Virus record (IMG/VR): IMGVR_UViG_3300037484_000502 | Location: 1-63,912 of that record | Strand: one strand, 5' to 3' | Source: a virus | Lineage: Duplodnaviria; Caudoviricetes | DNA length: 63,912 nucleotides | In this document: positions 21,801 to 39,000 of the stretch, one piece after another | Layout: the number at the start of each line of letters is the position of its first letter | Position numbering within the stretch: position 1 is the stretch's first letter | Notes under the pieces: generated by a model | Database searches by the model: none | The model's input: only the letters and a program-made list of their open reading frames with translations | What the model was told of the DNA's origin: nothing | Translations under genes and position numbers: made by a program

Positions 21801-24013
21801 GTAGGCAGCTCGAAGTCCTGACTCCAGTAGCCAACTTGCGTTGTGCTCGTAGTTTCAAGGGTGTAGCGATCTCCATCCGAGGAGCCCACGATGCTGCCAG
21901 TAACTGCCCAGGGAGTCGCGGGCCCCTCCGTACCCTCGTACTGGACAGTCGTGGAGGTCACGTCAGCTTCTGCGTACGGAACCGAGACGCGACCGGGTGC
22001 TGCGTTGAGGAGGAAGGTCGTGGGGCTGTTGAGAGCCGCCGTGTACGCACGCTCGAAGGCGATGTACCTGTGGGCAATCTTGACGGGGGGCTTGCGTGTA
22101 GGGAACCTACCAAGGGCGAAGGACAGTGGGAACTTGGAAGTCCGGTACCCTCCCCATAGGCCACCGCTGGTAGGTGACGTGGCCGTACGGCCGCTTGCCA
22201 GGCTCCACCGATTGAGTGTCATGCCCTTCGTGTTGAGCCCGGTAAATCCCATCAGGGGAGCAGGAAACCACCTGTACGTGACCGTGACTGTGTGCGCTCC
22301 GACCGCGAACCGGACGATAGGCGCAGCCAGAGTGATCTCCCCCGTGTATGGGTTCACGTCTGATACCGCGACGGGTGTCCCGTCGTAAAGGACCGTTACG
22401 TCCATACGCGTGGCTGGTGTGGCATCTCCCCAGCGACGTACGAGGGGACCACGCGCCGTGAAGAGAGCTGTGGAGCCACCTGCGGGGGGTGAGTAGAACT
22501 GGGAGGTGACGTTCTCGTTCGTGACCTCCACGGAGGAGCGAACACCCAGCCGATCAACCTCGACCGTGTACTGTATCCCGCTGCCCGCAAGTGGAAAGCG
22601 TGGATTGACGACACGCACGAAGCACATTGCCGGACGCACTTCGGTAGCGGGCCCGGTAGCTATGCCCAGTGGGCCACCGTCGGGTCCCAGAAGGGTCTCA
22701 AGAAGATAGCTGCCCGCGTTGGGGCCCGTGGCGAGTGTCAGAATCTCTCCGGGTACGGCGCCCGCCCAATCCTGAAGGTCATCTACCAGGGCCCCATCCA
22801 CGACGGTGACGGTGCCAGTGAGTCCCGTGGGGGACGTGGTGTACGCTCGTGCAACAGGATCCGACCCGAAGGGAAAATCGAGTACCTCAGTGATTAGGTA
22901 CCGACCGGCATTGGCTCCTACCGTGATGAGCAGCGGAGCCCCCACGCGTACCGATCGAAAGCTCAGTGTGTCATTGAGCGTGTATCGGTCGCTGAGGATG
23001 ACTCCCGTGCTGGAGGAAATCTCCTTGATGCCAGAGCAGTACTTGCGGAAGTCGTCGTAGTAGTAGGCTTGGAGCCCCACTTCCAGATGGTCGTCTGAGA
23101 AAACTTCAGAATACGTCTCGCGAAAGAGATTGCGGTACTCGAAGAGCGTGTGTGCAGGCCGCAGAGCCCTGAGGACAATCCCAACGTTCGTCGCAAGGAC
23201 GAGGGGTAGGTCCGCAAAGTCGGAAAGAAGGTCATGCGTGTGGGAGGCTAGCGCTGGTGGGCCGACAATTGCCGTGGAGTCCTCTACCAGAAATCCGGCG
23301 ATCGTGTGCGTGTGGTCCGGACCCGAACCATCATCCCAGGTGGTGCCCGTCGTCTCCCCGTCGCCCGCAGCGTTGATCGAAACCGTGTGATAGTGAACGT
23401 CTGTCCCGGCGGCAGTCGTACGCCTGTGCTTCGAAACATTGACCTCAAAGGTGAATCGATCCTTGAGGGTCCAACCCACGCCAGGCTGACCAATGTAGGA
23501 GAATTTCTCCAACACAGAGACTTCGGCGTCAGTCAGTGCCTCAACACCCTCCAGCAGAACCGCGGTCTTGCTCCCTCGAAGAAGCAGTGTCACCATCTTC
23601 CGCAGGAACTCGCGGTACGTGATGTCCCCGCTGATGACGGGAAGGCCCGTGGTTTCAGACGTGGGGAAGATCAGGGAGGCGAGAAACTGAAAGAGGACTT
23701 CTGGGCGTGTGAAGTCGTAATCCGTGTCCTCGAAGGCATCCTCTGCGCTGACTTGGATGCGGGCCAGCTCCTCGCTGATCGCCTGAAACTGCTGGACGTA
23801 GCTCGGACCTTTGGTCTGCGAGACGTAGTTCGAGGGCAGCGAATTGAGAAAAACAAGCGTGATTTGGTCGGCGACTGCACGAACTCGCGACTCATCTACC
23901 TGCCCTTCCTGGTCGAAAGGGGCCGGATTCTGCGGCTCTGGGCCAGTGACGCTCGCAGGCAGGACCGTGACTAGGCCGTCTTCAGCCCGGGACTTGGGGG
24001 TGGTGTCGGCCAT
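18857..24013 (-). CDS. large baseplate wedge / tail protein (gp7/tail protein I-like N-terminus)
   Basis: LPSNY..YREFLR..LLRGS and LRPAHT motifs; next same-strand gene after baseplate J-like if the CRISPR locus is removed. Confidence 0.75.
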   Translation of the reverse strand: MADTTPKSRAEDGLVTVLPASVTGPEPQNPAPFDQEGQVDESRVRAVADQITLVFLNSLPSNYVSQTKGPSYVQQFQAISEELARIQVSAEDAFEDTDYDFTRPEVLFQFLASLIFPTSETTGLPVISGDITYREFLRKMVTLLLRGSKTAVLLEGVEALTDAEVSVLEKFSYIGQPGVGWTLKDRFTFEVNVSKHRRTTAAGTDVHYHTVSINAAGDGETTGTTWDDGSGPDHTHTIAGFLVEDSTAIVGPPALASHTHDLLSDFADLPLVLATNVGIVLRALRPAHTLFEYRNLFRETYSEVFSDDHLEVGLQAYYYDDFRKYCSGIKEISSSTGVILSDRYTLNDTLSFRSVRVGAPLLITVGANAGRYLITEVLDFPFGSDPVARAYTTSPTGLTGTVTVVDGALVDDLQDWAGAVPGEILTLATGPNAGSYLLETLLGPDGGPLGIATGPATEVRPAMCFVRVVNPRFPLAGSGIQYTVEVDRLGVRSSVEVTNENVTSQFYSPPAGGSTALFTARGPLVRRWGDATPATRMDVTVLYDGTPVAVSDVNPYTGEITLAAPIVRFAVGAHTVTVTYRWFPAPLMGFTGLNTKGMTLNRWSLASGRTATSPTSGGLWGGYRTSKFPLSFALGRFPTRKPPVKIAHRYIAFERAYTAALNSPTTFLLNAAPGRVSVPYAEADVTSTTVQYEGTEGPATPWAVTGSIVGSSDGDRYTLETTSTTQVGYWSQDFELPTASVVGTAARFQVESYALDGVFTGVGFGFHNDRRLYLAGALVVNGLKHIGLLARPGEISAQSSWIVGPYANGTIQSTKIVTCSVAQAPKLLASGQRFQILTGSQTGVYTVDEVSIDTVSSVVTISIVETFPANPALIGNKYADIVFETAWDTGQCTWRLYVSTLNDGVQLVFGGATGGTLATVSGGPVLASPAYLGPDVLPSGSGRYLWGSFSRQATNKVQWDFVRYLSTPDGGTRFSRGTVVDTLMTGDPEDAEWFLTTPYGDSATSGGLLRITATPAEESLGTSYGYGLIDPFLNGRRVSAFDAKLYLDRDTSGAGGAAISMMDTHREARLGNILFQDKGASGKVILPQPSFSLVGATSYTEQGWTLNGPGTPYANGPETLLSGSGDTSWLLTQSLALGSVSLGRILEFRLAIDSYTLSGTGETGLFFGAVVSNSSIVITFTGPDVVNLMDMSGPVVLASAAIPWSDGAKRTYRLDVDPTGNLVSLYVDDVFATSAAYAAFPIVAFPIPDRLQLGYLTYTDASFVVSLSSLCFMEGLDGIANIHRTFGLWKGGAQYDIDNWALPRSDGLSVLNSDPSSVIVDMDWTVECWVRLFVDPTFGAVLIRPDLAPPAGYTGDFATQSLDPTAAWVRVEYANLPRSTSDTRFGSVFFGALNPAASTLQFWNEVQYRVFTHTSVDYRAPQRMALNQWNVITSGDFLKDKSPEQVIVASLTPTRVSLRPAHIYANRVFVVIVEGVPLAAGSWSFNTDSQEITLTTALASTGFPVTVVFAAGKPVTNTYLQGQPLSESQTVLNEGTPPVPMSHVGQATVTTVSADGGPTPAFPPAIPANPNYFLRDKYLARKFSDDPDVLYERMDFFQIEDGGSRGEIASFCDGSGASGIGLDGTLFSENMTPPTSPYASNFGRGAGRFGPVLYASGGVAGVLGLLGPASYVTPFSGPNPTPTGLVAAMLVPVGPSAGMVPGSGGGSINREVLWYLRP

Positions 24014-24046
24014 CGTTCCACCCTACGGCGGTCAAAGGTGGATTAC

Positions 24047-25470
24047 CGCCCATCCCCGTTTGCACGGGGGATACCAACCAACGCCCGGTTGACCAATGAA
24101 GGCGAACGGTTCATCCCCGCTTGCACGGGGATACTCCTCGACCAGCTCGTCTCTGAGACCGCCGAGGGGTCCATCCCCGCTTGCGCGGGGGATACTCAGG
24201 TATCTGAGGGCAGCCCCCGCCTTATCGAGGTCCATCCCCGCTTGCGCGGGGGATACCCATTGACGTAATAATTTCCGTACCCGTCGGAAGGTCCATCCCC
24301 GCTTGCGCGGGGGATACGTCTCCGCAAACGTTGTGGTGCCCAAGATGGCAGGTCCATCCCCGCTTGCGCGGGGGATACCGACGAGAGCTGTTCGGTGGAC
24401 GTGGAGCCACTGGTCCATCCCCGCTTGCGCGGGGGATACCGGGAGTGCGACGTGCAACAGCAGCGGCTCAGGGGTCCATCCCCGCTTGCGCGGGGGATAC
24501 CCTTGCACCGCCTCGGCCCCTTCGAGAGATCGAGGTCCATCCCCGCTTGCGCGGGGGATACGTGGGATTCGGAGCGACCGCTCGTAGCTCTTCAGGTCCA
24601 TCCCCGCTTGCGCGGGGGATACGAATCGTGGAACTTGCTACCGATGCCGAGACCGGGTCCATCCCCGCTTGCGCGGGGGATACCCTACTTCCGTCTCTAC
24701 CCACACGGCCGCATAGGGTCCATCCCCGCTTGCGCGGGGGATACTAGCATGCCTTGGCCAGGTCCATGTCTACGTAGGGTCCATCCCCGCTTGCGCGGGG
24801 GATACGTCACGTCCAGGCCACAGGACCCTACTAGACGGGGTCCATCCCCGCTTGCGCGGGGGATACGACGCCACGCACCCAGATAGTTCTGTAGGGCAGG
24901 GTCCATCCCCGCTTGCGCGGGGGATACTAGGCTGTGCAGACCGACGGTAGTAGAGGTGGAGGTCCATCCCCGCTTGCGCGGGGGATACCTGGGCAGCCGC
25001 TACCTGAGGGCACGATCAGAAGGTCCATCCCCGCTTGCGCGGGGGATACTCACCGTGAAATTTACCCGCGAGGAGTACTCCATCCCCGCTTGCGCGGGGG
25101 ATACGCCGCTGCCTGCTGTGCACGGGTCAGGACTGAGGGTCCATCCCCGCTTGCGCGGGGGATACCACGGGCGTACGCTTCCGCCGATCACCCGCATGGG
25201 TCCATCCCCGCTTGCGCGGGGGATACAATACGATGCCCCTGGTGCAACTGCTGCCCGGAGGTCCATCCCCGCTTGCGCGGGGGATACTCCTTAGTGGTAA
25301 GCGCCCATGCGTGTTCACGCGGTCCATCCCCGCTTGCGCGGGGGATACGCGGCGTGACGTAAGTGCCAGGCGCTACATGGAGGTCCATCCCCGCTTGCGC
25401 GGGGGATACAGGGAGGCGGGTAGCTGGTAGGTCGTCGCTGCAGGTCCATCCCCGCTTGCGCGGGGGATAC
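24047..25470 (-). CRISPR. type I-E CRISPR array 1: 24 repeats / 23 spacers; repeat GTATCCCCCGCGCAAGCGGGGATGGACC
   Basis: 28-nt repeat, 61-nt period; leader on right, degenerate repeats at left end; one unit shortened by 6 nt near 25050-25104. Confidence 0.98.
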
Positions 25471-25541
25471 TCTGCGACAACTTGTCGCAGGAAAGAAGTC
25501 TGATTCAGTTTTCAGAGATGGAGTCGAGACCCCCTTACTCC
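25471..25541 (-). promoter_or_regulatory. CRISPR leader 1
   Basis: Shares 21-nt TCCATCTCTGAAAACTGAATC and the palindrome CTGCGACA-N3-TGTCGCAG with leader 2; GGAGTAAG (minus, 25534-25541) resembles the promoter motif. Confidence 0.85.
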
Positions 25542-25552
25542 TTTTTCCCGGG

Positions 25553-25560
25553 GGCGTAAG
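25553..25560 (+). promoter_or_regulatory. GGCGTAAG motif 6 nt before cas1 ATG
   Basis: Recurrent motif; no SD before cas1. Confidence 0.55.
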
Positions 25561-25566
25561 TAGTTC

Positions 25567-26463
25567 ATGTTTCTGAAAGGTCGCCTTGGAATCGATGGGG
25601 CGCAGATTGCGCAGGCGGATCGCCATGGGGTACTTTGGTTGGGTCGTGGGATCCTGGATGTTCGGGATGGTGTCGCACGATTCGTGACTGTGGGAACAGA
25701 ATGGCTCCCGGCGGGGGATTACGCAATTCCATTTCAACAATTGTCGTGCGTGGTTTTGGGGCCCGGTACCTCTATTACGCACGATGTACTTAGGATCTTT
25801 GCGGCCCACGGAACTGGTTTGGTAATGACTGGTGAGGATGGGGTGAAGTTCTATGCCAGTATGCCATTTGGCCCGGATGACTCCAGGCGGGCTAGAAGAC
25901 AGGTCGCGATATGGTCAGATGAATCAAAGAGATCACTCCTGGTGAGACGAATGTATGCCTGGCGTATGGGAGAAATCTTCCCAGATGCAAGTCTCGATGT
26001 TCTTCGTGGGATGGAGGGTGCACGAGTGAAGGCATCCTATGAGCATCTAGCACACGCTCACGGAATTACTTGGAAGGGGAGGCAATACGACCGCGGTGAC
26101 CCCGAATCCGCAGATCACCCCAACCAAGCGATAAATCACGCATCCACAGCAGTCAACGCATGTGCAATGGTCGCAACGGCTGTGACTGGCACCATCCCTC
26201 AACTGGGATTCATCCATGAGACGAGTGGTAATGCACTCTGTCTCGATGTTGCGGATATGTTCCGGGAATCTGCGACAGTACCGACGGCATTTGCAGCAGT
26301 GAAAGAGCACCAGAAGGCACCTGATAAGTCACTTGAACGCACAGTGCGTAAGTTCGTGGGAAAGCTGGCACGGAGAACACAGCTTGTTGCTCAGATGATT
26401 GACAAGATCAAGGAGATGTTTGATGGGTGCGACAACGATTCTAGTGACGAGAAACGTACGTGA
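25567..26463 (+). CDS. cas1: type I-E CRISPR integrase Cas1
   Basis: LGPGTSITHD, LRGMEGARVK, LGFIH, LDVADMFR; catalytic E/H/D present. Confidence 0.97.
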   Translation: MFLKGRLGIDGAQIAQADRHGVLWLGRGILDVRDGVARFVTVGTEWLPAGDYAIPFQQLSCVVLGPGTSITHDVLRIFAAHGTGLVMTGEDGVKFYASMPFGPDDSRRARRQVAIWSDESKRSLLVRRMYAWRMGEIFPDASLDVLRGMEGARVKASYEHLAHAHGITWKGRQYDRGDPESADHPNQAINHASTAVNACAMVATAVTGTIPQLGFIHETSGNALCLDVADMFRESATVPTAFAAVKEHQKAPDKSLERTVRKFVGKLARRTQLVAQMIDKIKEMFDGCDNDSSDEKRT

Positions 26464-26770
26464 CCGCTTTCGTGGATTCCTTGCATCATGTACCTGTGAG
26501 GTGGCACCTGGAGTGTACCTCGGTTTCGATATGAACTCTAGGGTACGAGAACGTGTGTGGGATGTTCTTGAATCGTGGTGGCAACTTGGGGACGACGCCA
26601 GCGTTGTTATGGCATGGCCCAAAGCTGATGCACCTGGAGGTATGCGTGTCAAAACTCTCGGTGTCCCACCCGTTGAACTTGTCGAGATTGATGATTTGAT
26701 ACTAACACGTCGGGATGCGGATGCAGAACAACGAACTGTTCTGACGAAGCGGCTGGGCGTAAGAACCTGA
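26423..26770 (+). CDS. cas2: type I-E Cas2
   Basis: RFRGFLAS..EVAPGVY..RVRERVW; follows cas1; start approximate. Confidence 0.93.
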   Translation: MGATTILVTRNVRDRFRGFLASCTCEVAPGVYLGFDMNSRVRERVWDVLESWWQLGDDASVVMAWPKADAPGGMRVKTLGVPPVELVEIDDLILTRRDADAEQRTVLTKRLGVRT

Positions 26771-29451
26771 TGCGAGGAACACCAACGACATTTTGGGGGA
26801 AGCTGACGAGAAACGCGGCTGGAGAAGTCACCGATTGGCATCCCCTGGTTGCCCATTGCGCTGATGTGGCTGCTGTTGTGGAGGCCCTGCTCACAAGAAC
26901 GATCCTTGGTATCAGATTTGCCCATATTTTGGGTATGGGTACCCTCGACAGATGCACCATAGCAAAGTTGTGTGTCCTTGCTGCACTCCACGATATCGGA
27001 AAATTTAATCATGGATTTCAAGCAAAATCCCTACCCCTGGGTAGCAAGGTAGAACGTAGGGGACACACCACTGAAGGTTTGTCACTTTTCAATCCACCGG
27101 GACCAGATCCTGAGATTCTTGCTCTGCAAGAGCGCCTCCCTCTTGCGGATTTCAAAATGTGGGGGGAAGAAGAGAGCATCGGGCTTCTTCTTGCTTCAAT
27201 CAGTCATCACGGTAGGCCGGGGGATGTGGATGCAGCTCGATTTGAACGGGAGATTTGGCGCCCTCGGGGTGGGAAGGATCCAGGTGAGGGCCTTGGCCTT
27301 CTTGTCTCCCACATCAAGGGATGGTTTCCGGAGGCATTCTCCGGTGTTGGGACACTCCCATCCGCACCGGCTTTTCAACACGCCTATGCGGGGCTCGTCA
27401 TGCTTGCAGACTGGGTTGGATCGGATAGTTCGGAGGGGGCATTCCGATACCAAACAGATCTGGATCCTTCTGACCGCATGGTGTTCTCCAGGGCGCAAGC
27501 TGCTAAGTCCCTAGTTGCACTAGGTCTCGATGTAGAAACCTACCGAACCTCCCTTGGTATTGAGACCCCCAAATTCGGGAACATTTGGACACCATATCAA
27601 CCCAACAGTGCCCAACAGGCTGTGATTGATCTCCGCTTGGCACTCAAGTCGGGCATGCTGTCGTTGCTTGAGTCAGAAACAGGATCCGGCAAAACAGAAG
27701 CGGCGATCATCCACTTCCTGAGACTTTTTCATCTGGGTCTTGTGGACGGCTTGTACTTTGCGTTACCTACCAGAACAGCTGCAACACAGATTCACAAGCG
27801 AGTAGTGGATGCTGTTGCGAAAGCTTTCCCGGATAGTGTGTGTCGGCCACCAGTCGTACTTGCAGTACCTGGGTATCTTCGCATAGATGAAATCGAGGGC
27901 AGGAAGCTTCTACCTGGGTTTGAGGTTCTATGGAACGATGACCCACTTAGGGCTCAACGGTATAGGGGGTGGGCTGCCGAACTCCCGAAGCGTTTTTTAG
28001 CCGGGGCTATTGCTGTCGGGACCATTGACCAGGCATTACTTTCGGCACTGCAAGTAGACCATGCCCATCTTCGATCTACAGCACTGTTGAGGCATCTTCT
28101 CGTAGTCGATGAAGTCCATGCCTCGGATGCATACGGAACGAGACTCCTCACGGAAGTTTTGGGCACACACCTATCGGCCGGTGGTCATGCATTGCTGCTC
28201 TCTGCAACACTTGGGACAGAGGCTCGAACCAGACTTTTCACACCTCAGGATGCACCACCCCAAAAACCGCCCCCTCTCTCGGAGGCCAAACTTGCTCCGT
28301 ACCCAGCACTCACTACTCGTATTGAGGGTGAGACTGAGGTGGTTGTACGCACAATCAAAGTCTCCTCAACTTCAGTGCCCAAGTATGTGATGCCAGACCT
28401 GCGCCCTTGGATCCGCGATCCCTCAAAGATCATTGCCGAAGCACTTGAAGCAGCTAGAAGAGGAGCACGCATCATCATCCTGCGAAACACTGTGGGTGAC
28501 TGTGTTGCGACACAAAAGGCTCTCGAAACAGCGGTAGCTGCTAGTGGGGAGGGTCATTTGCTCTTTAGGTGCAAGGGCGTTTCGGCCCCCCACCATTCCC
28601 GCTTCGCCCGTGAGGATAGGAACGATCTTGACGTTGCGATTGGGGAGTCCTTCGGTAGAAATGGGAAACACCACTTTGGGATGATTGCGGTTACGACTCA
28701 GACCATACAACAAAGTCTCGATTTGGATGCCGACCTACTCATTACTGATTTGTGCCCCATGGACATACTGCTCCAGCGTATTGGGCGTCTTCATAGGCAC
28801 CCAATACGAGTAAGGCCCGAGGGATATGGGAAGCCACGAGTGGTTGTGCTTGTCCCTACGGACCGTAATCTAGGCAAACTGATTGGTCCCAAAGGTGAGG
28901 CGCGTGGAAGACATGGGTTTGGCCGTGTGTATGAAGATCTACGCATCCTGGAAGCAACGTGGAGACTGCTGGAAACTGAGAGTGTCCTGGAGATTCCGAC
29001 GATGAACCGGCACCTCGTTGAACACACCACCCATCCTGAGGCACTTGGTGCAATCGTGCGTGAACTTGGGGGCGTGTGGCCTGTGCACCAGATAAGGGTT
29101 GACGGGATCCGACTAGCTAGCAGCGGTGTGGCAATGCTCAATCTAGTCAGACGTGATCAACCCTTTGGTGAGCTTGCAACATGTTTCCCGAGCAAAGGGG
29201 AGGACAGTCGTCGCATCCCCACTCGCTTGGGGGAAGGGGATCGCAGGTTGGTGTTCCAGGACTCCTTTGAGAGCCCGTTTGGGCATTGGATTCGAGAACT
29301 GAGCGTGCAAGGGTGGCTCGCTGATGGGGCGGCTTCCGATGGGGCTGCGATAGTTATGGGGGTAAGTGGGGAATCGACTCTAATCTCGTCTGGGGATGCG
29401 ATTTTTGTCTACGATCGGCTGGGACTGCGTAAAGGAGACAACGCACTGTGA
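26770..29451 (+). CDS. cas3: Cas3 HD nuclease-helicase
   Basis: LVAHCADVAAV, LHDIGK, SHHG, LADWVGS; TGSGKTE, DEVH, SAT, QRIGRLHRH. Confidence 0.97.
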   Translation: MRGTPTTFWGKLTRNAAGEVTDWHPLVAHCADVAAVVEALLTRTILGIRFAHILGMGTLDRCTIAKLCVLAALHDIGKFNHGFQAKSLPLGSKVERRGHTTEGLSLFNPPGPDPEILALQERLPLADFKMWGEEESIGLLLASISHHGRPGDVDAARFEREIWRPRGGKDPGEGLGLLVSHIKGWFPEAFSGVGTLPSAPAFQHAYAGLVMLADWVGSDSSEGAFRYQTDLDPSDRMVFSRAQAAKSLVALGLDVETYRTSLGIETPKFGNIWTPYQPNSAQQAVIDLRLALKSGMLSLLESETGSGKTEAAIIHFLRLFHLGLVDGLYFALPTRTAATQIHKRVVDAVAKAFPDSVCRPPVVLAVPGYLRIDEIEGRKLLPGFEVLWNDDPLRAQRYRGWAAELPKRFLAGAIAVGTIDQALLSALQVDHAHLRSTALLRHLLVVDEVHASDAYGTRLLTEVLGTHLSAGGHALLLSATLGTEARTRLFTPQDAPPQKPPPLSEAKLAPYPALTTRIEGETEVVVRTIKVSSTSVPKYVMPDLRPWIRDPSKIIAEALEAARRGARIIILRNTVGDCVATQKALETAVAASGEGHLLFRCKGVSAPHHSRFAREDRNDLDVAIGESFGRNGKHHFGMIAVTTQTIQQSLDLDADLLITDLCPMDILLQRIGRLHRHPIRVRPEGYGKPRVVVLVPTDRNLGKLIGPKGEARGRHGFGRVYEDLRILEATWRLLETESVLEIPTMNRHLVEHTTHPEALGAIVRELGGVWPVHQIRVDGIRLASSGVAMLNLVRRDQPFGELATCFPSKGEDSRRIPTRLGEGDRRLVFQDSFESPFGHWIRELSVQGWLADGAASDGAAIVMGVSGESTLISSGDAIFVYDRLGLRKGDNAL

Positions 29452-30992
29452 CCAACCATCAAAACGATCTACTGACAGAATCCATCTTCGGAGTCGAAGG
29501 TCGGGATGGACGATCCAGAGTATCTCTTGCGGGCCTTCTAGCGCGCCTTGGACAAGGTGTTCCGACCGAGATGACGGCACTTATGTCGCATCAACAGCAC
29601 CCGTGGCACGCATTTGTAGTACAACTTGCGGCACTGGTTCTTGCTCGAAATGGGGACACTAGACTCGACCGATCGGAAATCGAGTGGTGTGACGCCTTGC
29701 GAAATCTGGCCGGTGGGGAAGAGGCATTCTCTCTTGTCGTCCCTGACCTGTCAAAGCCTGGATTCATGCAGTCCCCGGTTCCTGAGGGCTCCCTATCGGA
29801 TTGGAAGAAAGATCAGGTACACCACACGCCGGGTGAACTCGATGTAATCCCTACTGCGAGAAACCACGATGTGAAGATCGGCAGATTTAGTAGTCCTGCA
29901 CTTGAGCACTGGATCTACGCGCTTGTGTCCCTACAGACGAACGAAATGTTCATGGGCGCTAAGAATTGGGGTATTGCACGCATGAATGGTGGGACTTCAT
30001 CGCGCCCTTGTATCAGTGCTGCCAGAAGTAGCAACTTTGAAGTGCGGTTCACCCGTGACGTGACAACGTGGCTGCAAGAACGCGAGAGACTCGTTCGTGA
30101 ACGTGGTTACGATTCCGCTGGGATTGGACTCGTGTGGGCTGCCCCCTGGGATGGCGAACAGAGTCTGGCACCCTCGGACTTAGATCCTTTCTTCATAGAG
30201 GTATGTCGTAGAGTCCGATTTGTGTCGAATGGGTGTGGTGGATTACAAGCACACTATCGCCCTACTAACGTCTTACGAATCTCACCAATGGGGATGCCAA
30301 AGGCATACGGTGCAACGGGTGACATTTGGACTCCCCTTAAAACCAAAGATGGCGGTTCCCTGACTGTTTCCTCGAATGGTTTCGACTATAGAACTCTTTC
30401 AGACCTACTATTCAGTTCTGACTGGCGCCAAAGCCCCTCACAGATAGTACGAAAGGAAGACGGCCCTACCCCTGTACTGATTGCATGTGCGTTAGCGCGT
30501 AAGCAAGGTGGGACTGAGGGACTTCATGAGCGTGTCATCCCTATCCCAGAGAAAGCGAAGAGATGTTTTGCTTCCCCTGGGGATCGTGTGCAGATTGGCA
30601 AGGTGGCGAAGGACCGGGTCGCCCGCGTATTGAAGATGCGGGACGGTGTCCTCAAGCACGCACTCCTCGCTATAGTCCAAGGGGGCCCTACCAAGATCAA
30701 CTTCAAGGACAAGAGCGCCAAAGTCCATCTAGATGCCTTCGAGCAACGTATTGATGGCCTGTTCTTCGAGCACCTCTTTGATGCGATAGGTCTTGAACCA
30801 GAAGAGTCTGAATCCCTTTGGGATGCCCTTCTCCTCAAAGAGGCGAAAGACGTGAAGAAGCGTGCGGAGGGTACACTCACGATTCCTATCTCACGTCGGT
30901 ACAAGGCACTTGCCGCAGGGGACCGCACCTTTCTAGATTCGTCCAAGAAGCATAAGTTTTACCGGCCTGTTCCCGATACTGGAGCCAAATGA
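29448..30992 (+). CDS. cas8e: Cascade large subunit Cas8e/Cse1
   Basis: HQQHPWHAFVVQLA, NWGIARMNGG, LDPFFIEVCRRVR; position after cas3. Confidence 0.9.
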   Translation: MTNHQNDLLTESIFGVEGRDGRSRVSLAGLLARLGQGVPTEMTALMSHQQHPWHAFVVQLAALVLARNGDTRLDRSEIEWCDALRNLAGGEEAFSLVVPDLSKPGFMQSPVPEGSLSDWKKDQVHHTPGELDVIPTARNHDVKIGRFSSPALEHWIYALVSLQTNEMFMGAKNWGIARMNGGTSSRPCISAARSSNFEVRFTRDVTTWLQERERLVRERGYDSAGIGLVWAAPWDGEQSLAPSDLDPFFIEVCRRVRFVSNGCGGLQAHYRPTNVLRISPMGMPKAYGATGDIWTPLKTKDGGSLTVSSNGFDYRTLSDLLFSSDWRQSPSQIVRKEDGPTPVLIACALARKQGGTEGLHERVIPIPEKAKRCFASPGDRVQIGKVAKDRVARVLKMRDGVLKHALLAIVQGGPTKINFKDKSAKVHLDAFEQRIDGLFFEHLFDAIGLEPEESESLWDALLLKEAKDVKKRAEGTLTIPISRRYKALAAGDRTFLDSSKKHKFYRPVPDTGAK

Positions 30993-31543
30993 TGACTGAT
31001 TCGACAACTGAGTTGGTGGAACAACCACAAACTGAGCCCCCTTATCGTGAGCGTCTCTCATCGGCGGTCAACACAATCTCGATTGGGATGAGTCGTGGAT
31101 ACTCTCGGGGGGACGTTTCAGCACTTCGCCGTCTCAACTCAAAAAGTTGGGGGGCCCCCATCTTCTGGCACATTGTTACCCAAATACTTGAGCCTAATGG
31201 GCTAGTGTCCCCTGTGGGACACCGTGCACAAGAGGATGAGAGGCGCTGGGCTGTCCTGCTTGCCTCTATGGCCCTACTCCAGGGGCAGCACACACATCAA
31301 GTCCCCTTCGGTAAGGGGCTTGCTGTTGCTCAGGTGAGCCCACTTCGCGTCGAGCGCCTGTTACGTGCACATGGCAGTGCACTCCTCGATCTTGTCAAAT
31401 CCATGGCCCACCAACTATCCTCGAAAGGCGTAAAGTTCGACCAGGTGGGGTTGGTTGAGTTGGTGCTCTCAGACGGGGCCCCCTATGAAGAGAGCATCCG
31501 CCGATCAATTGCCCGAAGCTTCTACCGCATCGAAACACGCTAA
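30989..31543 (+). CDS. cas11: Cascade small subunit Cse2/Cas11
   Basis: GDVSALRRL, SPLRVERLL, RRSIARSFY. Confidence 0.9.
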   Translation: MMTDSTTELVEQPQTEPPYRERLSSAVNTISIGMSRGYSRGDVSALRRLNSKSWGAPIFWHIVTQILEPNGLVSPVGHRAQEDERRWAVLLASMALLQGQHTHQVPFGKGLAVAQVSPLRVERLLRAHGSALLDLVKSMAHQLSSKGVKFDQVGLVELVLSDGAPYEESIRRSIARSFYRIETR

Positions 31544-31574
31544 CAACCGAATCACAATGTACATGGATAACTCA

Positions 31575-32810
31575 ATGACCCTGACCCGTTTCCTTCAGAT
31601 CAACTGTCTCACATCGTACCCGGCGTCCCTCCTCAACAGGGATGACTCAGGATTTGCAAAGCGAATCCCGTTTGGTGGGACCACCAGAACTCGTTGCTCT
31701 TCACAGAGCCTCAAATACCACTGGCGGTCGCATGATGGGGAGTATGCGATCTCTGGTATCGAAGGCGTCGAACTCTCAGTCCGCTCACGGGTGACTTTCG
31801 AGAGTGAGGTGTTTGCGAAGCTTGTCGCTGAGGGGGTACCTGAGGTGCGGGCTGACGTGCTGACGAAGGCGCTTCTGGCACTGGTACTCGGAAAGAGTGA
31901 CAAGGCCGCACAGGAAGAGACGGACGAAGAGGACAAGCCCAAGAAGAGCAAGAAGAGCAAGAAGAGTGAACCTGAGTCCCGTGAGTCGATCCAAACGAAT
32001 CAGGTGACTGTTTTCGGCAGGCCCGAGCTGAGTTATCTGTTTGGGGAAGCCCTGAAGATTGCAACCACCCCCACCTTTGAGGCTCTTTTCAGTAGCCCCG
32101 AGAAGGTAAAGGAGGCCGTCAGTGGTGCTGTTGAGGCGCACTTCAAGTCGAAAGACCATAAGGCCAACCTCAAGGCTCTCAAGCTGGGTGCTGGTATCGA
32201 CGCAACGCTCTTTGGTCGAATGGTAACTGGGGACATCCTTGCGCGATGTGATGCGGCAATTCATGTCTCCCATGCCTTCACAGTCCACGAGGAAGCAACC
32301 GAGAGCGATTACTGGTCGGCAGTGGACACCTTGTCGGAAGCAGCGGGAAGTGCACACATCAATTCCAGTGAACTCACGACCGGTCTCTTCCACATCTACA
32401 TTTGTGTAGACATCCCCCTACTCGTTTCGAATCTGGGTGGTGACTTGGCGCTTGCAGGTGAAGTCCTTGCACGTCTGGTGCACACTGTCTCAACAGTGTC
32501 TATCGGTGCAAAGCTGGGATCAACAGCGCCACATACCTACGCACAAATGGTGCTCGTGGAAGCTGGTAACTCTCAACCCTGCACAATGGCAAATGCTTTC
32601 GCAAATGCTGTGAGCACCAACGGATCCCTGCTTGCAAATGCCTACGATGCACTCGCACGATTCGTAACTGACCTCGATGCGATGTACGGTTCGAAGAACA
32701 AGCGTGTGATCGCAATGATGGGGCCCCGAGAGAAGCTCGCAGGTGTGTTCCCGGCACCTGTAACTCTTGCGGAGGTTGCGGACTTTGCTCGCGCTGTGGT
32801 CTCCAAATGA
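31575..32810 (+). CDS. cas7: Cas7/Cse4 backbone subunit
   Basis: LLNRDDSGFAKRIPFGG..R.SSQSLK, LFGRM, ESDY.SAVD; start may be 31557 or 31563. Confidence 0.95.
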   Translation: MTLTRFLQINCLTSYPASLLNRDDSGFAKRIPFGGTTRTRCSSQSLKYHWRSHDGEYAISGIEGVELSVRSRVTFESEVFAKLVAEGVPEVRADVLTKALLALVLGKSDKAAQEETDEEDKPKKSKKSKKSEPESRESIQTNQVTVFGRPELSYLFGEALKIATTPTFEALFSSPEKVKEAVSGAVEAHFKSKDHKANLKALKLGAGIDATLFGRMVTGDILARCDAAIHVSHAFTVHEEATESDYWSAVDTLSEAAGSAHINSSELTTGLFHIYICVDIPLLVSNLGGDLALAGEVLARLVHTVSTVSIGAKLGSTAPHTYAQMVLVEAGNSQPCTMANAFANAVSTNGSLLANAYDALARFVTDLDAMYGSKNKRVIAMMGPREKLAGVFPAPVTLAEVADFARAVVSK

Positions 32811-33565
32811 TCGATGTCCTCGTGCTGCGATTTGAGGCCCCCCTTATGTCGTTTGGTGACGTTGCCATCGACAGTAAGAGGCCCACACGCATGTTTCCTA
32901 CCCAGTCCATGATCACAGGTCTGTGTGCCAATGCACTAGGACATGGGCACCATGAGCCGGATCGAACCGGTGCCTTGCAAGCAAGAATCCGTTTTGCTGC
33001 ACGGCGTGACCGTGAGGGGGAAATGCTGCGTGACTACCACACGGTAGATTTGGGTCAAAAGGACTCCCGTGGGGTGTATTGGATGGCAGACACAGGTTGG
33101 ACAACACACGGCGCCCCGGAGTGTCGTGGCGGGGACTCCAAAAACAGAATGGGGACACACCAACGTGAGCGGTTCTATCTGGCAGATGCCATCTACACTG
33201 TCGTGCTGGCTCTGTCCCCATCTGAATCTGAGGAGTCACCATCTCTTGAGTCCTTAGAAGCTGCATTACAGGAACCAGCTCGCCCTCTCTTCCTCGGACG
33301 GAAGACATGCATCCCCGCGTCCCCAATCCTTGTGGGTCGTACAAGCGCAAGCACCCTACTCTCAGCACTCTCTACAGCCCCACTCGCAAATAGGTCCACA
33401 ATCCGAGATGGCCGTGTCCTTGCGGAGTGGCCTGACGATGGGACTGAAACGGACATCTTGAAATCGCGTCGATCAGCAATCACTGATGAACGAGATTGGG
33501 CAAATCAGATCCATGTTGGCCGACGATTTGTACGTGAAGGAATGCTGACACTGGAGATGAAGTGA
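32807..33565 (+). CDS. cas5: Cas5e
   Basis: LRFEAPLMSFG, PTQSMITGL.ANALG, DYHTV, R.YLADA, LFLGRK.CIP. Confidence 0.95.
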   Translation: MIDVLVLRFEAPLMSFGDVAIDSKRPTRMFPTQSMITGLCANALGHGHHEPDRTGALQARIRFAARRDREGEMLRDYHTVDLGQKDSRGVYWMADTGWTTHGAPECRGGDSKNRMGTHQRERFYLADAIYTVVLALSPSESEESPSLESLEAALQEPARPLFLGRKTCIPASPILVGRTSASTLLSALSTAPLANRSTIRDGRVLAEWPDDGTETDILKSRRSAITDERDWANQIHVGRRFVREGMLTLEMK

Positions 33566-34239
33566 CCCCCCAATTGCACCTTGTCCGACTCGAACTGAAT
33601 CCCTCACGGGTTTTTGATTTTGGGGCGCACCTTCGTCTGCCTCAGGGTACAGACTTGGGCTATCTGGTGCACTGCCAATTAGGCACCCTCTTTGGAGAGT
33701 GCAGCCTCACACCATTTGTTATAGAGGACACCAAGAAATCCCGTAACATCATTGTGCAAGGATACAGCACGCGTAGTGGTGAAGAACTTCGAGAGTATGC
33801 TCAGACTTTCTCGGACCCCAGAGCCTTTGAGGCGTGTGATTGGACTACATTTGCAAGCAAACCCATGCCTATGGCTTCGGTGCTCAAGCATGGAATGCAA
33901 CTAGGTTTTGCCACACGAGTTCACCCAGTTAAGCGTACTAGATCGGGGGAAAGAACACTCTCAGAACAAGAATTGCCTGCGTGGGTTACAAGAGAACTCT
34001 CCCGTAATGGGGCAGCAACTCTCAACGTAGTCAAAGTGTCACCTATCCGACTTATCCCTATGACTCGGCGCACGCAGGGTGTTGATCGTCAGATTGTGTG
34101 TTGGGGTGGTCCTGAGGTTCACCTGGAGGGGGCCTTCACTGTCAGGGACCCTGAATCTTTCCAAATGTTGTTGTTACGAGGTGTGGGACGCCAACATGCG
34201 TTTGGATTTGGAATGCTTCGGTTGCGTTCTGCGCGATAG
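33562..34239 (+). CDS. cas6e: Cas6e/Cse3 crRNA endonuclease
   Basis: N-terminal His (GYLVHCQL) and C-terminal GVGRQHAFGFGML glycine loop. Confidence 0.93.
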   Translation: MTPQLHLVRLELNPSRVFDFGAHLRLPQGTDLGYLVHCQLGTLFGECSLTPFVIEDTKKSRNIIVQGYSTRSGEELREYAQTFSDPRAFEACDWTTFASKPMPMASVLKHGMQLGFATRVHPVKRTRSGERTLSEQELPAWVTRELSRNGAATLNVVKVSPIRLIPMTRRTQGVDRQIVCWGGPEVHLEGAFTVRDPESFQMLLLRGVGRQHAFGFGMLRLRSAR

Positions 34240-34289
34240 AATCCATCTCTGAAAACTGAATCGGAGCCCCTGCGACAACCTGTCGCAGA
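34240..34289 (+). promoter_or_regulatory. CRISPR leader 2 (50 nt)
   Basis: Conserved blocks 34242-34262 and 34270-34288 shared with leader 1. Confidence 0.85.
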
Positions 34290-36037
34290 GTATCCCCCGC
34301 GCAAGCGGGGATGAACCTCTTCCCAAGACCAGGTGATGCACACCTGACCGTATCCCCCGCGCAAGCGGGGATGAACCTCCTCGAACGGCCCCATCTCCAC
34401 CCTGAATGCCGTATCCCCCGCGCAAGCGGGGATGAACCTTCTCGATTAGTCTACGAAGTTCCGGGGCGCGAGTATCCCCCGCGCAAGCGGGGATGAACCC
34501 GACACGCTCCCGCCCTACCTCGGAAACCGAATGTATCCCCCGCGCAAGCGGGGATGAACCGATGCAGCGCTGCTATTTCCAGCACGCTAGGACGTATCCC
34601 CCGCGCAAGCGGGGATGAACCTACCTAAGTAATAGTTTTCTCTTAGGTGAAAAGGTATCCCCCGCGCAAGCGGGGATGAACCTCTTTATGAAGGCTTCAG
34701 CGAAGGACGAGAAGGGTATCCCCCGCGCAAGCGGGGATGAACCCTCGTAGGAATACGACAGGCGGGGTCTTGGCGAGTATCCCCCGCGCAAGCGGGGATG
34801 AACCCTCATTACAGCCTCTGTAACGGAGATTCCGAAGGTATCCCCCGCGCAAGCGGGGATGAACCCGTGACAAGGCGCTCTCCGTCCCCCATGCCGTCGT
34901 ATCCCCCGCGCAAGCGGGGATGAACCGCCACCTTTGTAGCCGCTAGGGTGGCCCACACGGTATCCCCCGCGCAAGCGGGGATGAACCTGCCACCACGTAC
35001 CTGTCATCTACCGGCAACATGTATCCCCCGCGCAAGCGGGGATGAACCTCCACTGTGACGACTTTGGAGATCATCTTGGCAGTATCCCCCGCGCAAGCGG
35101 GGATGAACCTGCCTGGGCACCGGCCCCCGTAGCATGGATGATGTATCCCCCGCGCAAGCGGGGATGAACCTCATCTCTCGTGTCCCTACCCAGACAGCAG
35201 TACGTATCCCCCGCGCAAGCGGGGATGAACCTCTATCTCGTAATCCAGCACGTCATCGGGGTCTGTATCCCCCGCGCAAGCGGGGATGAACCTGAGTGCT
35301 CTCCAAATTCAATACCTGGTGGACAGTATCCCCCGCGCAAGCGGGGATGAACCGTGAAGGAGCCCACGTATGAACGACTACAAGACGTATCCCCCGCGCA
35401 AGCGGGGATGAACCCTGAGATTCAATGCCGCAGAGCTGGCCTCCCTCGTATCCCCCGCGCAAGCGGGGATGGACCTCCCAGTGCCGCTCTCGAATCGCGT
35501 TGCGGACAGTATCCCCCGCGCAAGCGGGGATGGACCCGGAGGGGCACGTCGACCGATCTGATGCCGCTTGTATCCCCCGCGCAAGCGGGGATGGACCCCT
35601 GCGTTTGGCGCGTTCTGGTCGATCGAAGTTGTATCCCCCGCGTAAGCGGGGGATGGGCCGCGAGTCGATCATGCGGACGTAGTGGGCGGGTGTGTTTCTC
35701 GCGTATCCCCCGTGCAAACGGGGATGAACCCGACGGAGACCTTCCGGCGGTGCGGCCCAAGGATTATCCCCCGTGTGAACGGGGATGGACCTCCCACACA
35801 TCGTTAGGTTTATGCAACGTTGGAGTGTCTCCCCCGTGCGAACGGGGATGGGCCGCACTCTTCCAGCGTCATCATGGCGGCACCGCAGTATCCCCCGTGT
35901 AAGCGGGGATGAACCGTGTCCGACGCTTTCCGAACGTCTGTCGGAGAAGTATCCCCCGTGCGAACGGGGATGGACCCTTCACAGTCACCTACCAAACCAA
36001 TCTGATCACGTATCCCCCGTGCAAACGGGGATGGGCC
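34290..36037 (+). CRISPR. type I-E CRISPR array 2: 29 repeats / 28 spacers; repeat GTATCCCCCGCGCAAGCGGGGATGAACC
   Basis: 61-nt period; last 7 repeats degenerate; one 43-nt spacer (35660-35702). Confidence 0.98.
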
Positions 36038-36041
36038 CTGG

Positions 36042-39000
36042 TTAGGCCCGATCTTCACTGAACGAGAAAGTCCAAACCCCGGGAGTCAGGTATTCAACTC
36101 CCGTCGGGTCAATGTCTCGTTCACCAGTCTCAAGTCCCACGATGTATGTCGCCCAGTACGCATGATTGCTTGGTGCGTCTCCCACAGGCAGGGACACCAT
36201 CACCCTATTCTGTGTGATTGCCACGCGCCGGGCGGCAATCTCCGCCGGTGTCACGTACCCTTGGGAAATTAGTGTATTATCGTCACTATAGGCGGGGATC
36301 ACCACGCCTTCAGCCCCGATGATGTACGTGCGACCCGCAGCCTCCTGCAACTGCTCAGGCAGCGTCAGTTGCAAGGTGAGTTGCACATCGTCCTCGAACA
36401 CACCAACGAATGAGCCTGTGGGCCCGCCGCCAGTCGTTGTCGCCGCAGTCAGCTCTTGAGTTATGAGCCAGGTGCTTACGACAGCATCCGACCACTGATC
36501 TAGGCGGACGGTGTCTCCGATTTGCCCTGACGCCAAGTCATCCTTTGCCACGGTTGATCCGAAGGCACGCACAAGTGTCGTGAGTGGGAGCACCACGTAC
36601 GACACTCCCGAGCTGGAGTCCAACACGTTCACTACATCAGAGCGGCGAAGGGGGCTACCCATACGCAACCGTGAGAGAAGAAGCCCTAGATTTGTGCGCA
36701 GCGTAGCATCCACCGTGCTCTGCTGGAATCCCTTCTTGAGTACGCATGTCGCCGTCAGATCTACAGGAACGGGAATCCCGCCCTTCGCCAGCACATCTGC
36801 CGCTCCGTGCTTGGATCCATCAAGGGCCGTTTGCAGGGCGCTTGTGATCAAGTTGGTCTGGTAGGTGATGACAAAATTCTCGTCGTAGGAGTAGCTAATG
36901 AGAATCGTCTGGCCATCGGTGATTGCACTGCCGGATGTTCGCTTGATTCCCAGGGGGTTCGTCTGGTCACCGTCGGCAATAGAGTAATCTGGCGACACCG
37001 AGGTAAATGGATTGTTGTAGGTGACCGTGCCGTCTGCATTCTTCACGACGATGGTCATGGAGTCCGCGCCCAAGTGCAGCACGTACTCCGTGTAGTCGCC
37101 TACGATCACATGTTCTTCGTCCACGACCGAAAGGATCGCCCCCGTGGGTACGGAAAGTGCGGGGTCCGCGCTGCCCGTGATCTGAAGGTAGTCCCCAGCC
37201 TGCGTAGACCGCCCTAGGGCGAGGGGCGAGTTGGGATGGACCAAGGTCCAGGTAGAGGCGTCGAGCGTGCCGCTGGCCTCCCCCACGACCTGCGTTATGC
37301 TCTCTACGGGCTGGCGCGTGAGGACGAACTTCTCACCTGTCCGGTACCGGTAGTCTCCGAGGATTACGTCGGTCAATGTGGGAAGGCCAACGGGCTGTGG
37401 CACATCCAGAGAGAGTGCAATCGTGTTGTAGTTGAGGTACGTGACCCCCGACAGGTTGTAGACCATCGAAGTGGTGGCGTTCCGCAGCCCCAGACCGATG
37501 GCCGAGTAGTCGAGCATCTGGCTCAGGGGATTTGTTGCGGACAGGTCGGAGTCCAATGCCTGAAATTGATAAGCACTGGGGTCCCCCACCACCACGAACT
37601 GCACGTCCCGCTTGCGTACGAACGTGAAGGCGAAGGAGTCTGTTACCGTGGCGAGACGCTGGCCCTGGGACCACACGTCGACCTTGCCACCGATGTGCGT
37701 GGCACTCGCCACATCGTAGTCCCGCTGCATGAGGGGATTGCCAGCCTCTACGACCTGTGCCTGAATCAGGCCGGGTACCTTGGCAGCCGTCTGGAAGTAG
37801 CCACGCTGCGTGCCGGTGTCCACTGCGGAGAGTGCGCCTCTGGACTCCGCAGCGAGCTGTGCGTTAGTCTGTGCGTTAGTACCCCCGAAGAACTCGTTGT
37901 CATTGATGACGGAGAGGCCGAATGGTGCCCCAGAAGAGATCTGTCTGGCTCCAATGTTTCCCGAGCTGCCAGGGTTCACGGCCTGAGCCGGAACCGTGAT
38001 CGAATATTGCCCTGTGGATGGGTTGTAGAATGAAGCCAATCTCGAAAGTGGGATTTCCGCAATCCTAGACGATCGAAACGAGACACCTCCCCCTGAGAGT
38101 AGGGTTCCCAGTTGGGCTTGAAGCGTTGTCGTGGGCGTGGTCCCCGTGTAGAAGCGGGCCTCTCCGATTGCCCTTTGCCCGGGAGTGCGTGTCACCCCGA
38201 AGTTGGCAGCCAGCTTATCGAAGGCGCCGTCGATGACGGTTTGAACGAGGGCCGGATCCGAGAGATAAAGTGCCTTGCTCAAAGCAATCTTGTAGTTGGA
38301 GGACGCAGGCGCGAGGGATACACCGCTGCCTGAGGGATCATCGATCTCCAAGAGCGTATCAAAGGACGACGCCCGGTAGATGAAGTCCAACAGGAACCGG
38401 ATGCGTTCGGCCTCTGTCGAGAACGGATCTAGAACCGTGTCCCGAACGACGGCACCCGGCTGGACTGCAATGTCCTTGTCCTTGCGGTAGATGCTGGCCA
38501 CCGCGTTCTGTAAGATCTGTTGCCGGCTAACCGACGGCAGACTCTGCGTGCTCACCCTGATGTTGATAGGATTGGCAACGACCTCTTGAGAGAAACTAGA
38601 CTCATACTCAATCTGAGTGAGCGGATCGAAGTACACAGCGGTCGCCACGTAGTAGAGAGGCTCCGTAGAAGGAAGCACCGCGAATGCGCCCACAGGGATT
38701 GTAGAAGGTACAGAGGTGAGGTTGTACTTCCTGTTGTGTAGGAACTCGAAGTACTCGATCAACTCAAGAGAGGAAATCGAAATGTCCACCTGAACTTCGG
38801 TGACTGTCTCCGGAATTTGAACCGCAGAGTTGACGTCGGTCTCCAACGTAGCCTGGGTGGAATCCTCTTGAGTGATGAGCGCTCTCACGAAGAGGGGGTC
38901 TGCACCCTGTGCGACATTCTTGCTGGTCAGGTTGAAGAGAGAAACCGTGCTCTCTTTCGTTACGGGCACCGTCACCGAGATGGCATTGATTCTGGAGTAT

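Follow-up and report, generated by a model that had tools for sequence, protein, structure and literature searches.

The cassette and its inverted-repeat ends

The window, a stretch of 63,912 nucleotides (nt) analyzed at its full length, is the whole of the 63.9-kb contig recorded as IMGVR_UViG_3300037484_000502 (Duplodnaviria; Caudoviricetes), and nearly all of its genes lie on the minus strand. [quoted passage not shown] The cassette is located in the baseplate operon, between the Baseplate_J-like gene bpJ and g1718, a gene encoding a protein of 1718 amino acids (aa), and its edges are formed by a perfect 27-nt inverted repeat. This inverted repeat is probably a by-product of the growth of the arrays and not a pair of mobility ends.

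Read directly, positions 24048-24074 (GCCCATCCCCGTTTGCACGGGGGATAC) are the exact reverse complement of positions 36010-36036. The two arms are the trailer-most (outermost) repeats of the arrays, L24 on the left and R29 on the right, which show no difference over their first 27 nt (0/27) and carry G and C, respectively, at the 28th position. The repeat is 28 nt long, nearly all spacers are 33 nt, and the arrays together comprise 53 repeats and 51 spacers. All 53 repeats are mutually inverted between the arrays (700 inverted pairs were listed), and since both arms are members of such arrays, their match is not a chance inverted repeat. The variant repeats all lie distal to the leaders, and hence both arrays are read outwards and the inverted repeat consists of the two oldest repeats. 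The leaders align over ∼55 nt beside the first repeat, including an identical 21-nt block and a shared palindrome, and differ by one indel and several substitutions. The palindrome, which is near-perfect (CTGCGACAA..TTGTCGCAG), lies directly before the first repeat in both leaders (25471-25492, minus strand; 34268-34289, plus strand) and may be a candidate protein-binding site for integration or regulation.

The repeats of both arrays are arranged in layers. In the right array, R1-R19 end in GATGAACC (AACC type) and R20-R22 in GATGGACC (GGACC type), followed by the variant or old repeats R23-R29. In the left array, L1-L22 end in GATGGACC, one unit being truncated, and 21 repeats of the GGACC type are identical. 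At positions 11 and 16, the modern form C11/G16 is present in R1-R23 and L1-L22, an intermediate form T11/G16 in R27 and L23, and the old form T11/A16 in R24-R26, R28, R29, and L24; T11 is therefore found in all of R24-R29 and A16 in five of these six. Paired with each other, these two positions close a 6-bp stem that carries a 4-nt loop. All 10 distinct repeats fold into this same hairpin with every stem cell paired (60/60), the 11-16 pair being U-A in six, C-G in three, and U-G in one, and the other changes in the hairpin affect loop positions 13 (C/T) and 14 (A/G) and keep the G-N-R-A loop. As pairing and fold are kept in the variants, the outer repeats represent an older but still processable form and not decayed copies. 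Among the seven old-form repeats of equal length, L24 is the closest to R29, the other five differing by 2-4 positions; R29 is central in this group, with 2-4 differences to each of the other old repeats of its own array. We read R29 and L24, from these comparisons, as the likely preserved founder repeats.

The right end of R29 is separated from the bpJ stop codon (36042-36044) by 4 nt and L24 from the g1718 start (24013) by 33 nt, of which the inner ∼20 nt are common to a related phage, G001. The preliminary description of this DNA had reported the exact 27-bp inverted repeat of the two trailer repeats, a non-consensus variant shared by both, and a cassette ending almost exactly at them, and had proposed that both arrays came from one leader-repeat unit duplicated in inverted orientation. 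These points are borne out: both arms depart from the modern repeat at T11, A16, G25, and G26, and the leader alignment, together with the same old repeat form in outermost position, is in agreement with a single duplicated unit.

Several irregularities were observed within the arrays. R23 (35631-35702, plus strand), at the border between old and modern repeats, carries an extra G followed by a 43-nt spacer; no other unit is oversized, and this one may be a scar of recombination or deletion. A left-array unit (25050-25104, minus strand) is shortened, its repeat ending in GGAGT and its spacer measuring 27 nt, and looks like a 6-nt deletion over the repeat-spacer border. Going inwards from R29 to R22 (35448-36037, plus strand), the dinucleotide at positions 25-26 is GG, GA, AA, GG, GA, AA, GG, and GA, i.e., it has a period of three repeats; tandem duplication was rejected as the cause of this pattern, as the spacers of those units are unrelated. 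The left array is co-directional with g1718, its last repeat ending 33 nt before the start codon (24014-24074). Array transcripts could enter g1718, and cleavage of the last repeat by Cas6e could generate the 5′ end of its mRNA. A promoter and terminator scan revealed none in the leaders or at the cassette ends, with fewer sites than in shuffled sequences, and no Rfam family reached the gathering score.

Table 1. Position of the cassette features, the flanking genes, and the terminal spacers with their protospacer-like sites in the window
Feature	Position	Strand	Remarks
Left terminal (oldest) repeat L24	24047..24074	-	Inverted-repeat arm; old form T11/A16/G25/G26; hairpin kept
Right terminal (oldest) repeat R29	36010..36037	+	Other inverted-repeat arm
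Left CRISPR array	24047..25470	-	24 repeats, 23 spacers; read towards g1718
Right CRISPR array	34290..36037	+	29 repeats, 28 spacers
Left leader	25471..25566	-	∼55-60 nt beside the repeat common to the right leader
Right leader	34240..34289	+	50 nt from the cas6e stop codon to the first repeat
Oldest left spacer LS23	24075..24107	-	27/33 own flank, 26/33 G403, 21/33 G001, 15/33 LR745208
LS23 protospacer-like site in g1718	23472..23504	-	27/33; coding strand; preceded by AA
Oldest right spacer RS28	35977..36009	+	30/33 G403, 24/33 own flank
RS28 protospacer-like site in bpJ	36844..36876	-	24/33; coding strand; preceded by AA
cas1 (Cas1e)	25567..26463	+	PF01867; TIGR03638 266 bits, cutoff 215.6
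cas2 (Cas2e)	26399..26770	+	TIGR01873 74 bits, cutoff 33
cas3, HD nuclease and helicase	26770..29451	+	Cas3_HD, DEAD, and Cas3 C-terminal domains; cas3_core and cas3_HD above cutoff
cas8e/cse1, weak match	29448..30992	+	TIGR02547 43.7 bits, below cutoff 70; no Pfam match; operon position
cas11/cse2	30989..31543	+	TIGR02548 49 bits, cutoff 28.5
cas7/cse4	31545..32810	+	Profile match above cutoff
cas5e	32807..33565	+	Profile match above cutoff
cas6e	33562..34239	+	PF08798 69 bits; below NCBIfam cutoff
bpJ, Baseplate_J-like wedge gene, 1141 aa	36042..39467	-	PF04865; phrog_6 baseplate wedge subunit; upstream of the cassette in the phage reading direction
g1718, structural gene, 1718 aa	18857..24013	-	Directly downstream of the cassette; follows bpJ by position

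All eight open reading frames (ORFs) of the cassette matched type I-E cas gene families in profile searches. They are arranged in the order cas1-cas2-cas3-cas8e-cas11-cas7-cas5-cas6e, which is unusual in placing cas1-cas2 first; as a consequence of this order, cas1 is next to the left leader and cas6e next to the right one. The adaptation genes, Cas3, the Cascade subunits, hairpin repeats, and a leader, which are among the features of type I-E systems, were all found; the repeats of such systems measure 28-29 nt and their spacers 32-33 nt. The cas2 ORF as listed overlaps cas1, and its real start may be further in. The GC content at third codon positions (GC3) of the cas genes is 0.42-0.59, compared with 0.58-0.73 for 12 of the 15 neighboring phage genes measured, the other three (GC3 0.51-0.52) including the GIY-YIG gene of the phage. 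The lower GC3 of the cas genes suggests a foreign origin of the cassette. The six closest Cas7 proteins, 56-62% identical, are encoded on short metagenome contigs. No related Cas7 was found in viral contigs with either a protein query or a 16-sequence alignment, and a Cas7 search of INPHARED returned four matches, none of them a convincing phage system. The data searched contained only this one cassette-bearing sequence.

The insertion site and the terminal spacers

Relatives of the phage were found in three lineages, none with more than 78% protein identity. LR745208.1 is a 485-kb uncultured phage with 53-60% aa identity over six genes, G403 shows 78% aa identity in bpJ and 77% in g1718, and G001, of which the metagenome contig L016 is the same phage, shows 69-71%. 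The bpJ gene comes after a gene for a gp25-like sheath initiator. The g1718 product gave no Pfam or PHROG match, and its homologs (57-77% aa identity) adjoin the bpJ homolog in all three relatives. The site between the two genes is empty in LR745208 (53-57% aa identical), where 3 nt separate them (stop codon, gcc, start codon). G403 has 1,545 nt there, containing a 292-aa GIY-YIG ORF (30.8 bits against a cutoff of 22.6) and a zinc-finger ORF of 174 aa. The occupant in G001 measures 11,835 nt; it includes a helicase-like gene, a histidine phosphatase, a fragment of polymerase A, and unknowns, and counterparts of these are missing from both the window and the LR745208 region compared. With four lineages each showing a different state, the site is a hotspot, and its use by other mobile genes in a baseplate operon goes beyond the preliminary description.

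Other observations concern the site and its surroundings. The ∼20 nt upstream of the g1718 start that the window (24020-24033, minus strand) has in common with G001 (contig L005, 865-885, minus strand) include a TGA, which in G001 is the stop codon of the last insert gene; an occupied site may be an older state that both lineages inherited. Three genes upstream of the cassette is a GIY-YIG/NUMOD3 homing-endonuclease-like gene (41496-42281, minus strand; GC3 0.51, as low as in the cas genes), with counterparts in the corresponding position of G403 (45% aa identity; L026 1799-2716) and LR745208 (37%; L003 14828-15619). The 76-kb G403 record, to which L026 belongs, is classed as a provirus in IMG/VR, yet it is collinear with the structural module of huge phages; it may be misclassified or may be a truly integrated relative.

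The 51 spacers were compared without gaps against the 61 kb of the phage outside the arrays (arrays masked). Only the two terminal spacers, LS23 and RS28, rose above the background, each matching the gene that flanks its own array, a result that the preliminary description did not contain. The best matches of the other 33-nt spacers had 19-22 identical positions, and shuffled spacers reached at least 24 matches in 4 of 1,880 trials and at least 27 in none of 1,880. The LS23 site lies 542 nt beyond the left array and the RS28 site 806 nt beyond the right array end. Translated in frame, both spacers correspond to the peptide encoded at their site (FAFIGQPGVG where the phage itself has FSYIGQPGVG, and FTVTYQTNLI where it has FVITYQTNLI), and most mismatches are synonymous; four of the six in LS23 fall at third codon positions.

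Comparison with the relatives indicated where the two spacers came from. Against G403, the peptide encoded by RS28 is identical, all three mismatches are synonymous, and an AA protospacer adjacent motif (PAM) precedes the site. The phage's own bpJ allele differs from RS28 at nine positions, six of them within the first nine (PAM-proximal) spacer positions. As identity between the window and G403 is only 68% in the final 1.2 kb of bpJ, a match of 30/33 argues that RS28 was taken from a phage of the G403 lineage and not from the carrier. A self-derived RS28, as expected for a capture hotspot around an active array, was rejected, since the spacer shares with G403 a derived Thr codon besides the 30/33 positions. 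For LS23, the own allele and that of G403 fit about equally (Table 1) and are themselves alike at only 23/33 positions, which points to a third, intermediate relative or an ancestor as the source. The PAM of type I-E systems is of the AAG type, located 5′ of the protospacer. As far as two protospacer families can define a PAM, AA is found at both window sites and at the RS28 site of G403, and GA at the LS23 site of G403.

The other 49 spacers matched nothing in G403 (76 kb), G001 (97.6 kb), or LR745208 (485 kb). INPHARED yielded no convincing spacer match: matches to Streptomyces phages had E = 0.1, and that to a Saccharomonospora phage was repeat-like. The latter phage, PIS 136 (JX006077.1), shows a seven-piece 70% match to the right array at 15680-15896, within an annotated hypothetical protein, and the tract may be repeat-like or a small array. 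An exact 16-nt match of LS23 elsewhere in G403 (E 0.09) was taken as chance. Use of the terminal repeats (1/28 differences) against the spacer-protospacer pairs (15/66) as a clock was abandoned as too weak, as Fisher's p rose from 0.03 to 0.44 when only unpaired positions were considered.

The safest inference would be that both arrays began growing while the system already faced close relatives of this phage. The earliest retained spacers appear to derive from the two genes bordering the site of the cassette. In type I-E systems, priming favors further acquisition from the same strand; both targets lie on the same strand, and the two acquisitions may not have been independent. Spacer-capture hotspots around active arrays are described in the consulted parts of reports on E. 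coli and Pyrococcus (PMC10011333, PMC5737086). A local capture bias is a possible origin of the terminal spacers, although the source of RS28 is not the DNA of the carrier.

Origin of the inverted repeat

During type I-E adaptation, each new spacer is inserted next to the leader, with duplication of the leader-proximal repeat. An array's founder repeat would in this way be displaced to the outer edge and would remain there. Both founders would have kept the older sequence, with a U11-A16 closing pair under the GNRA loop and GG at positions 25-26, and the repeats added later would have switched to C11-G16 and to A at position 26. The two leader-repeat units probably arose by one inverted duplication, and recombination presumably brought the cassette into a site that receives other mobile genes as well. 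The arrays are likely to have grown while the cassette was at this site, because each oldest spacer derives from the adjoining gene of a relative.

Some observations weigh against array growth as the explanation. Both arrays made the same U-A to C-G switch, and if each array copies only its own first repeat, this calls for either two parallel changes or an exchange between them. Over 27 nt, the terminal repeats do not differ, and the five internal old repeats are 2-4 positions away from R29, an unequal decay that hints at a constraint on the terminal repeats or at their homogenization. In addition, hardly any donor DNA lies beyond the repeats (right, 4 nt; left, 13 nt), the edges of the cassette being tidier than expected from illegitimate capture. 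The repeat pattern may involve an exchange of one array with the other or with a related cassette.

Four other explanations were weighed against array growth. The one that survives best, unlikely as it is, is a homing-like drive or marker exclusion, in which the two oldest CRISPR RNAs (crRNAs) would guide Cascade-Cas3 to the site-bordering genes of co-infecting relatives whose site is empty or has a different occupant, and repair from the cassette-bearing genome would copy the cassette in, or at least exclude rival alleles or displace the rival's occupant. The terminal repeats would then be conserved as the 3′ hairpins of two permanently kept crRNAs, which is compatible with their being founder repeats. 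The restriction of phage matches to the terminal spacers, each in its own flanking gene, is in favor of such a role, as are the close fit of RS28 to G403 next to an AA PAM, with the own allele mismatched at six PAM-proximal positions, the GIY-YIG endonuclease gene at the exact same site in G403, and the processing hairpin kept in all old repeats. The location of both protospacers on the same strand would also fit one spacer priming the other. However, just two spacers are involved, the best external match still has three mismatches, and LS23 gave no better match than that to the phage's own allele. The targets lie at a distance from the junction and not across it, and discrimination would therefore depend on allele differences. 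Old spacers are detectable only in conserved gene segments, which introduces a detection bias, none of the other 49 spacers matches the three relatives, and no transfer event was observed. No published description of a homing-like role for a phage CRISPR system was found in the portions of the literature consulted.

It is rather improbable that the ends were shaped by recombination between the inverted arrays, or with the related cassette of a co-infecting phage, gene conversion making the terminal repeats identical and a double crossover within the arrays replacing the modern repeats and cas genes of the interior and leaving the old trailer units. The abrupt change from old to modern repeats in both arrays and the irregular junction at R23 in the right array would be accounted for in this way, and the 53 inverted copies offer ample homology. 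Related cassettes do exist: sequencing run X1 (0.05 share of words; contigs of 158-291 nt at a depth of 2-5) contains a 248-nt contig identical to part of cas3, and contigs in which the repeat of the cassette and a portion of the leader are combined with different leader-adjacent spacers, consistent with array turnover in related cassettes. On the other hand, conversion of one 27-nt terminal repeat without touching the adjacent spacer is unlikely, the indel and substitutions in the leaders speak against recent homogenization there, and no inverted isomer or hybrid was seen. Run X1 showed no strand-switch joint, its depth of 2-5 and pieces of <300 nt being uninformative on inversion. A 42-nt piece from X1 at the bpJ end runs into unlike sequence and is too short to interpret.

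The preliminary description had further suggested that the repeats acted as ends for insertion or inversion, with Cas1 related to casposon integrases. The terminal repeats as functional ends of a casposon-like, transposon-like, or Cas1-Cas2-moved unit are now very improbable. The insert of 12.0 kb is bounded to its very edges by a perfect inverted repeat of 27 nt, few unassigned nucleotides lie outside it, and Cas1 is present within the cassette, all of which such a unit would show. However, as the preliminary description had also noted, a target-site duplication is absent; the 13-nt flanks share at best a direct repeat of 6 nt with one gap, and a match of that quality occurred in 8.6% of 20,000 random flank pairs. 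With all eight ORFs being cas genes, the cassette has no transposase or polymerase gene and no Tn7-like tnsA/B/C or tniQ ORF, and it retains Cas3. Its Cas1 is a Cas1e, 54% identical to that of a type I-E locus from Gemmatimonadaceae. The repeat, searched as an exact degenerate pattern, had no other copy in 2.9 million viral contigs, a metagenome collection, and 185,579 genomes, and a looser pattern returned only arrays of one Gemmatimonadaceae genome and six single chance matches. Moreover, the site accepts other inserts, those of G403 and G001, that contain no CRISPR repeats, and no terminal inverted repeat was seen in the 11.8-kb insert of G001. Capture of the cassette by spacer-protospacer recombination was also rejected, as both flanking genes are intact, RS28 being inverted and LS23 direct relative to its protospacer.

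Terminal repeats of CRISPR arrays commonly degenerate, but independent decay of both to the same sequence by chance is hardly credible, since the four shared non-consensus positions include a compensatory base pair and T11/A16 recurs in the old repeats of the right array, which argues for an inherited older form and not for decay.

Comparison with known systems

The cassette resembles bacterial type I-E systems of the E. coli type in its eight proteins, the 28-nt repeat with a 6-bp stem and 4-nt loop, the 33-nt spacers, and the AA located 5′ of both recognizable protospacers in the window. It differs from them in its location in a huge-phage baseplate operon, in having cas1-cas2 first and not last, in its two outward-reading arrays with duplicated leaders, and in the 56-62% identity of its nearest Cas7 proteins. 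The nearest repeat, identical at 25 of 28 positions with differences in the loop only, was found in a Gemmatimonadaceae genome, G002 (L007 1-1215 and L009 4111-5744). This genome carries cas7, then cas1, then cas2 beside the array; its Cas7 and Cas1 are 49 and 54% identical, respectively, and none of its spacers matches the window or its relatives. The similarity may serve as a weak pointer to the phylum of the host or donor.

Phage-encoded CRISPR-Cas is known from the type I-F system of ICP1. According to the sections consulted of the survey of huge phages by Al-Shayeb et al. (2020; PMC7162821), Cas1, Cas2, and Cas4 are missing from almost all phage systems, interference genes are absent from many, the median is six repeats, and some phage spacers target structural genes of other phages. 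Compared with the systems in those sections, the present cassette has Cas1, Cas2, Cas3, and 53 repeats, and no relative of its type I-E Cas7 was present in the phage collections searched. A complete and apparently adapting type I-E system with 51 spacers, located in an essential structural operon, stands apart from phage systems that, as far as these sections describe them, mostly lack adaptation genes. The layering of its repeats offers a readable history, in which an older form with a compensatory base-pair change is kept at both edges.

Free-standing homing endonuclease genes of T4-like phages, the subject of PMC2988022 and PMC2330249, offer a further comparison. Such genes spread by intronless homing and cause marker exclusion. 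Like the cassette, they insert between conserved genes at polymorphic sites, a GIY-YIG gene occupying the identical site in G403, and their specificity is towards the flanking alleles of relatives, as that of the two oldest spacers may be, the carrier's own alleles being different. The cassette differs in being RNA-guided through Cascade-Cas3 with acquired guides, and gene conversion by it is hypothetical. In guide-RNA homing by TnpB and IscB, as outlined in the parts consulted, the nuclease of the insert targets genomes without the insert and repair restores the insert (bioRxiv 10.1101/2023.03.14.532601, 10.1101/2023.11.20.567912). Judging from those parts, this guide-RNA homing by TnpB is the nearest concept to a homing-like role of the cassette; it differs in that its guide extends across the vacant junction and a transposase is part of the element, whereas here the targets lie 542 and 806 nt off and no transposase is present. 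If the match of the oldest spacers to the neighboring genes of related phages, together with the homing endonuclease at this site in G403, should prove more than coincidence, it would link CRISPR immunity to the selfish spread of its own locus.

Casposons have terminal inverted repeats, Cas1 inside the element, and a polymerase, and CRISPR-associated transposons have Tn7-like genes, homing spacers, and a loss of Cas3. The cassette shares with casposons the terminal inverted repeats and the internal Cas1, its inverted repeats being CRISPR repeats, and differs from them in lacking a target-site duplication, a casposase-type Cas1, and a polymerase. With CRISPR-associated transposons it shares variant repeats that flank a spacer matching DNA near the end of the element, and it differs from them in having Cas3 and no Tn7-like genes. 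Even if array growth is the whole explanation, the cassette illustrates that mirror-image array ends need not mean transposition.

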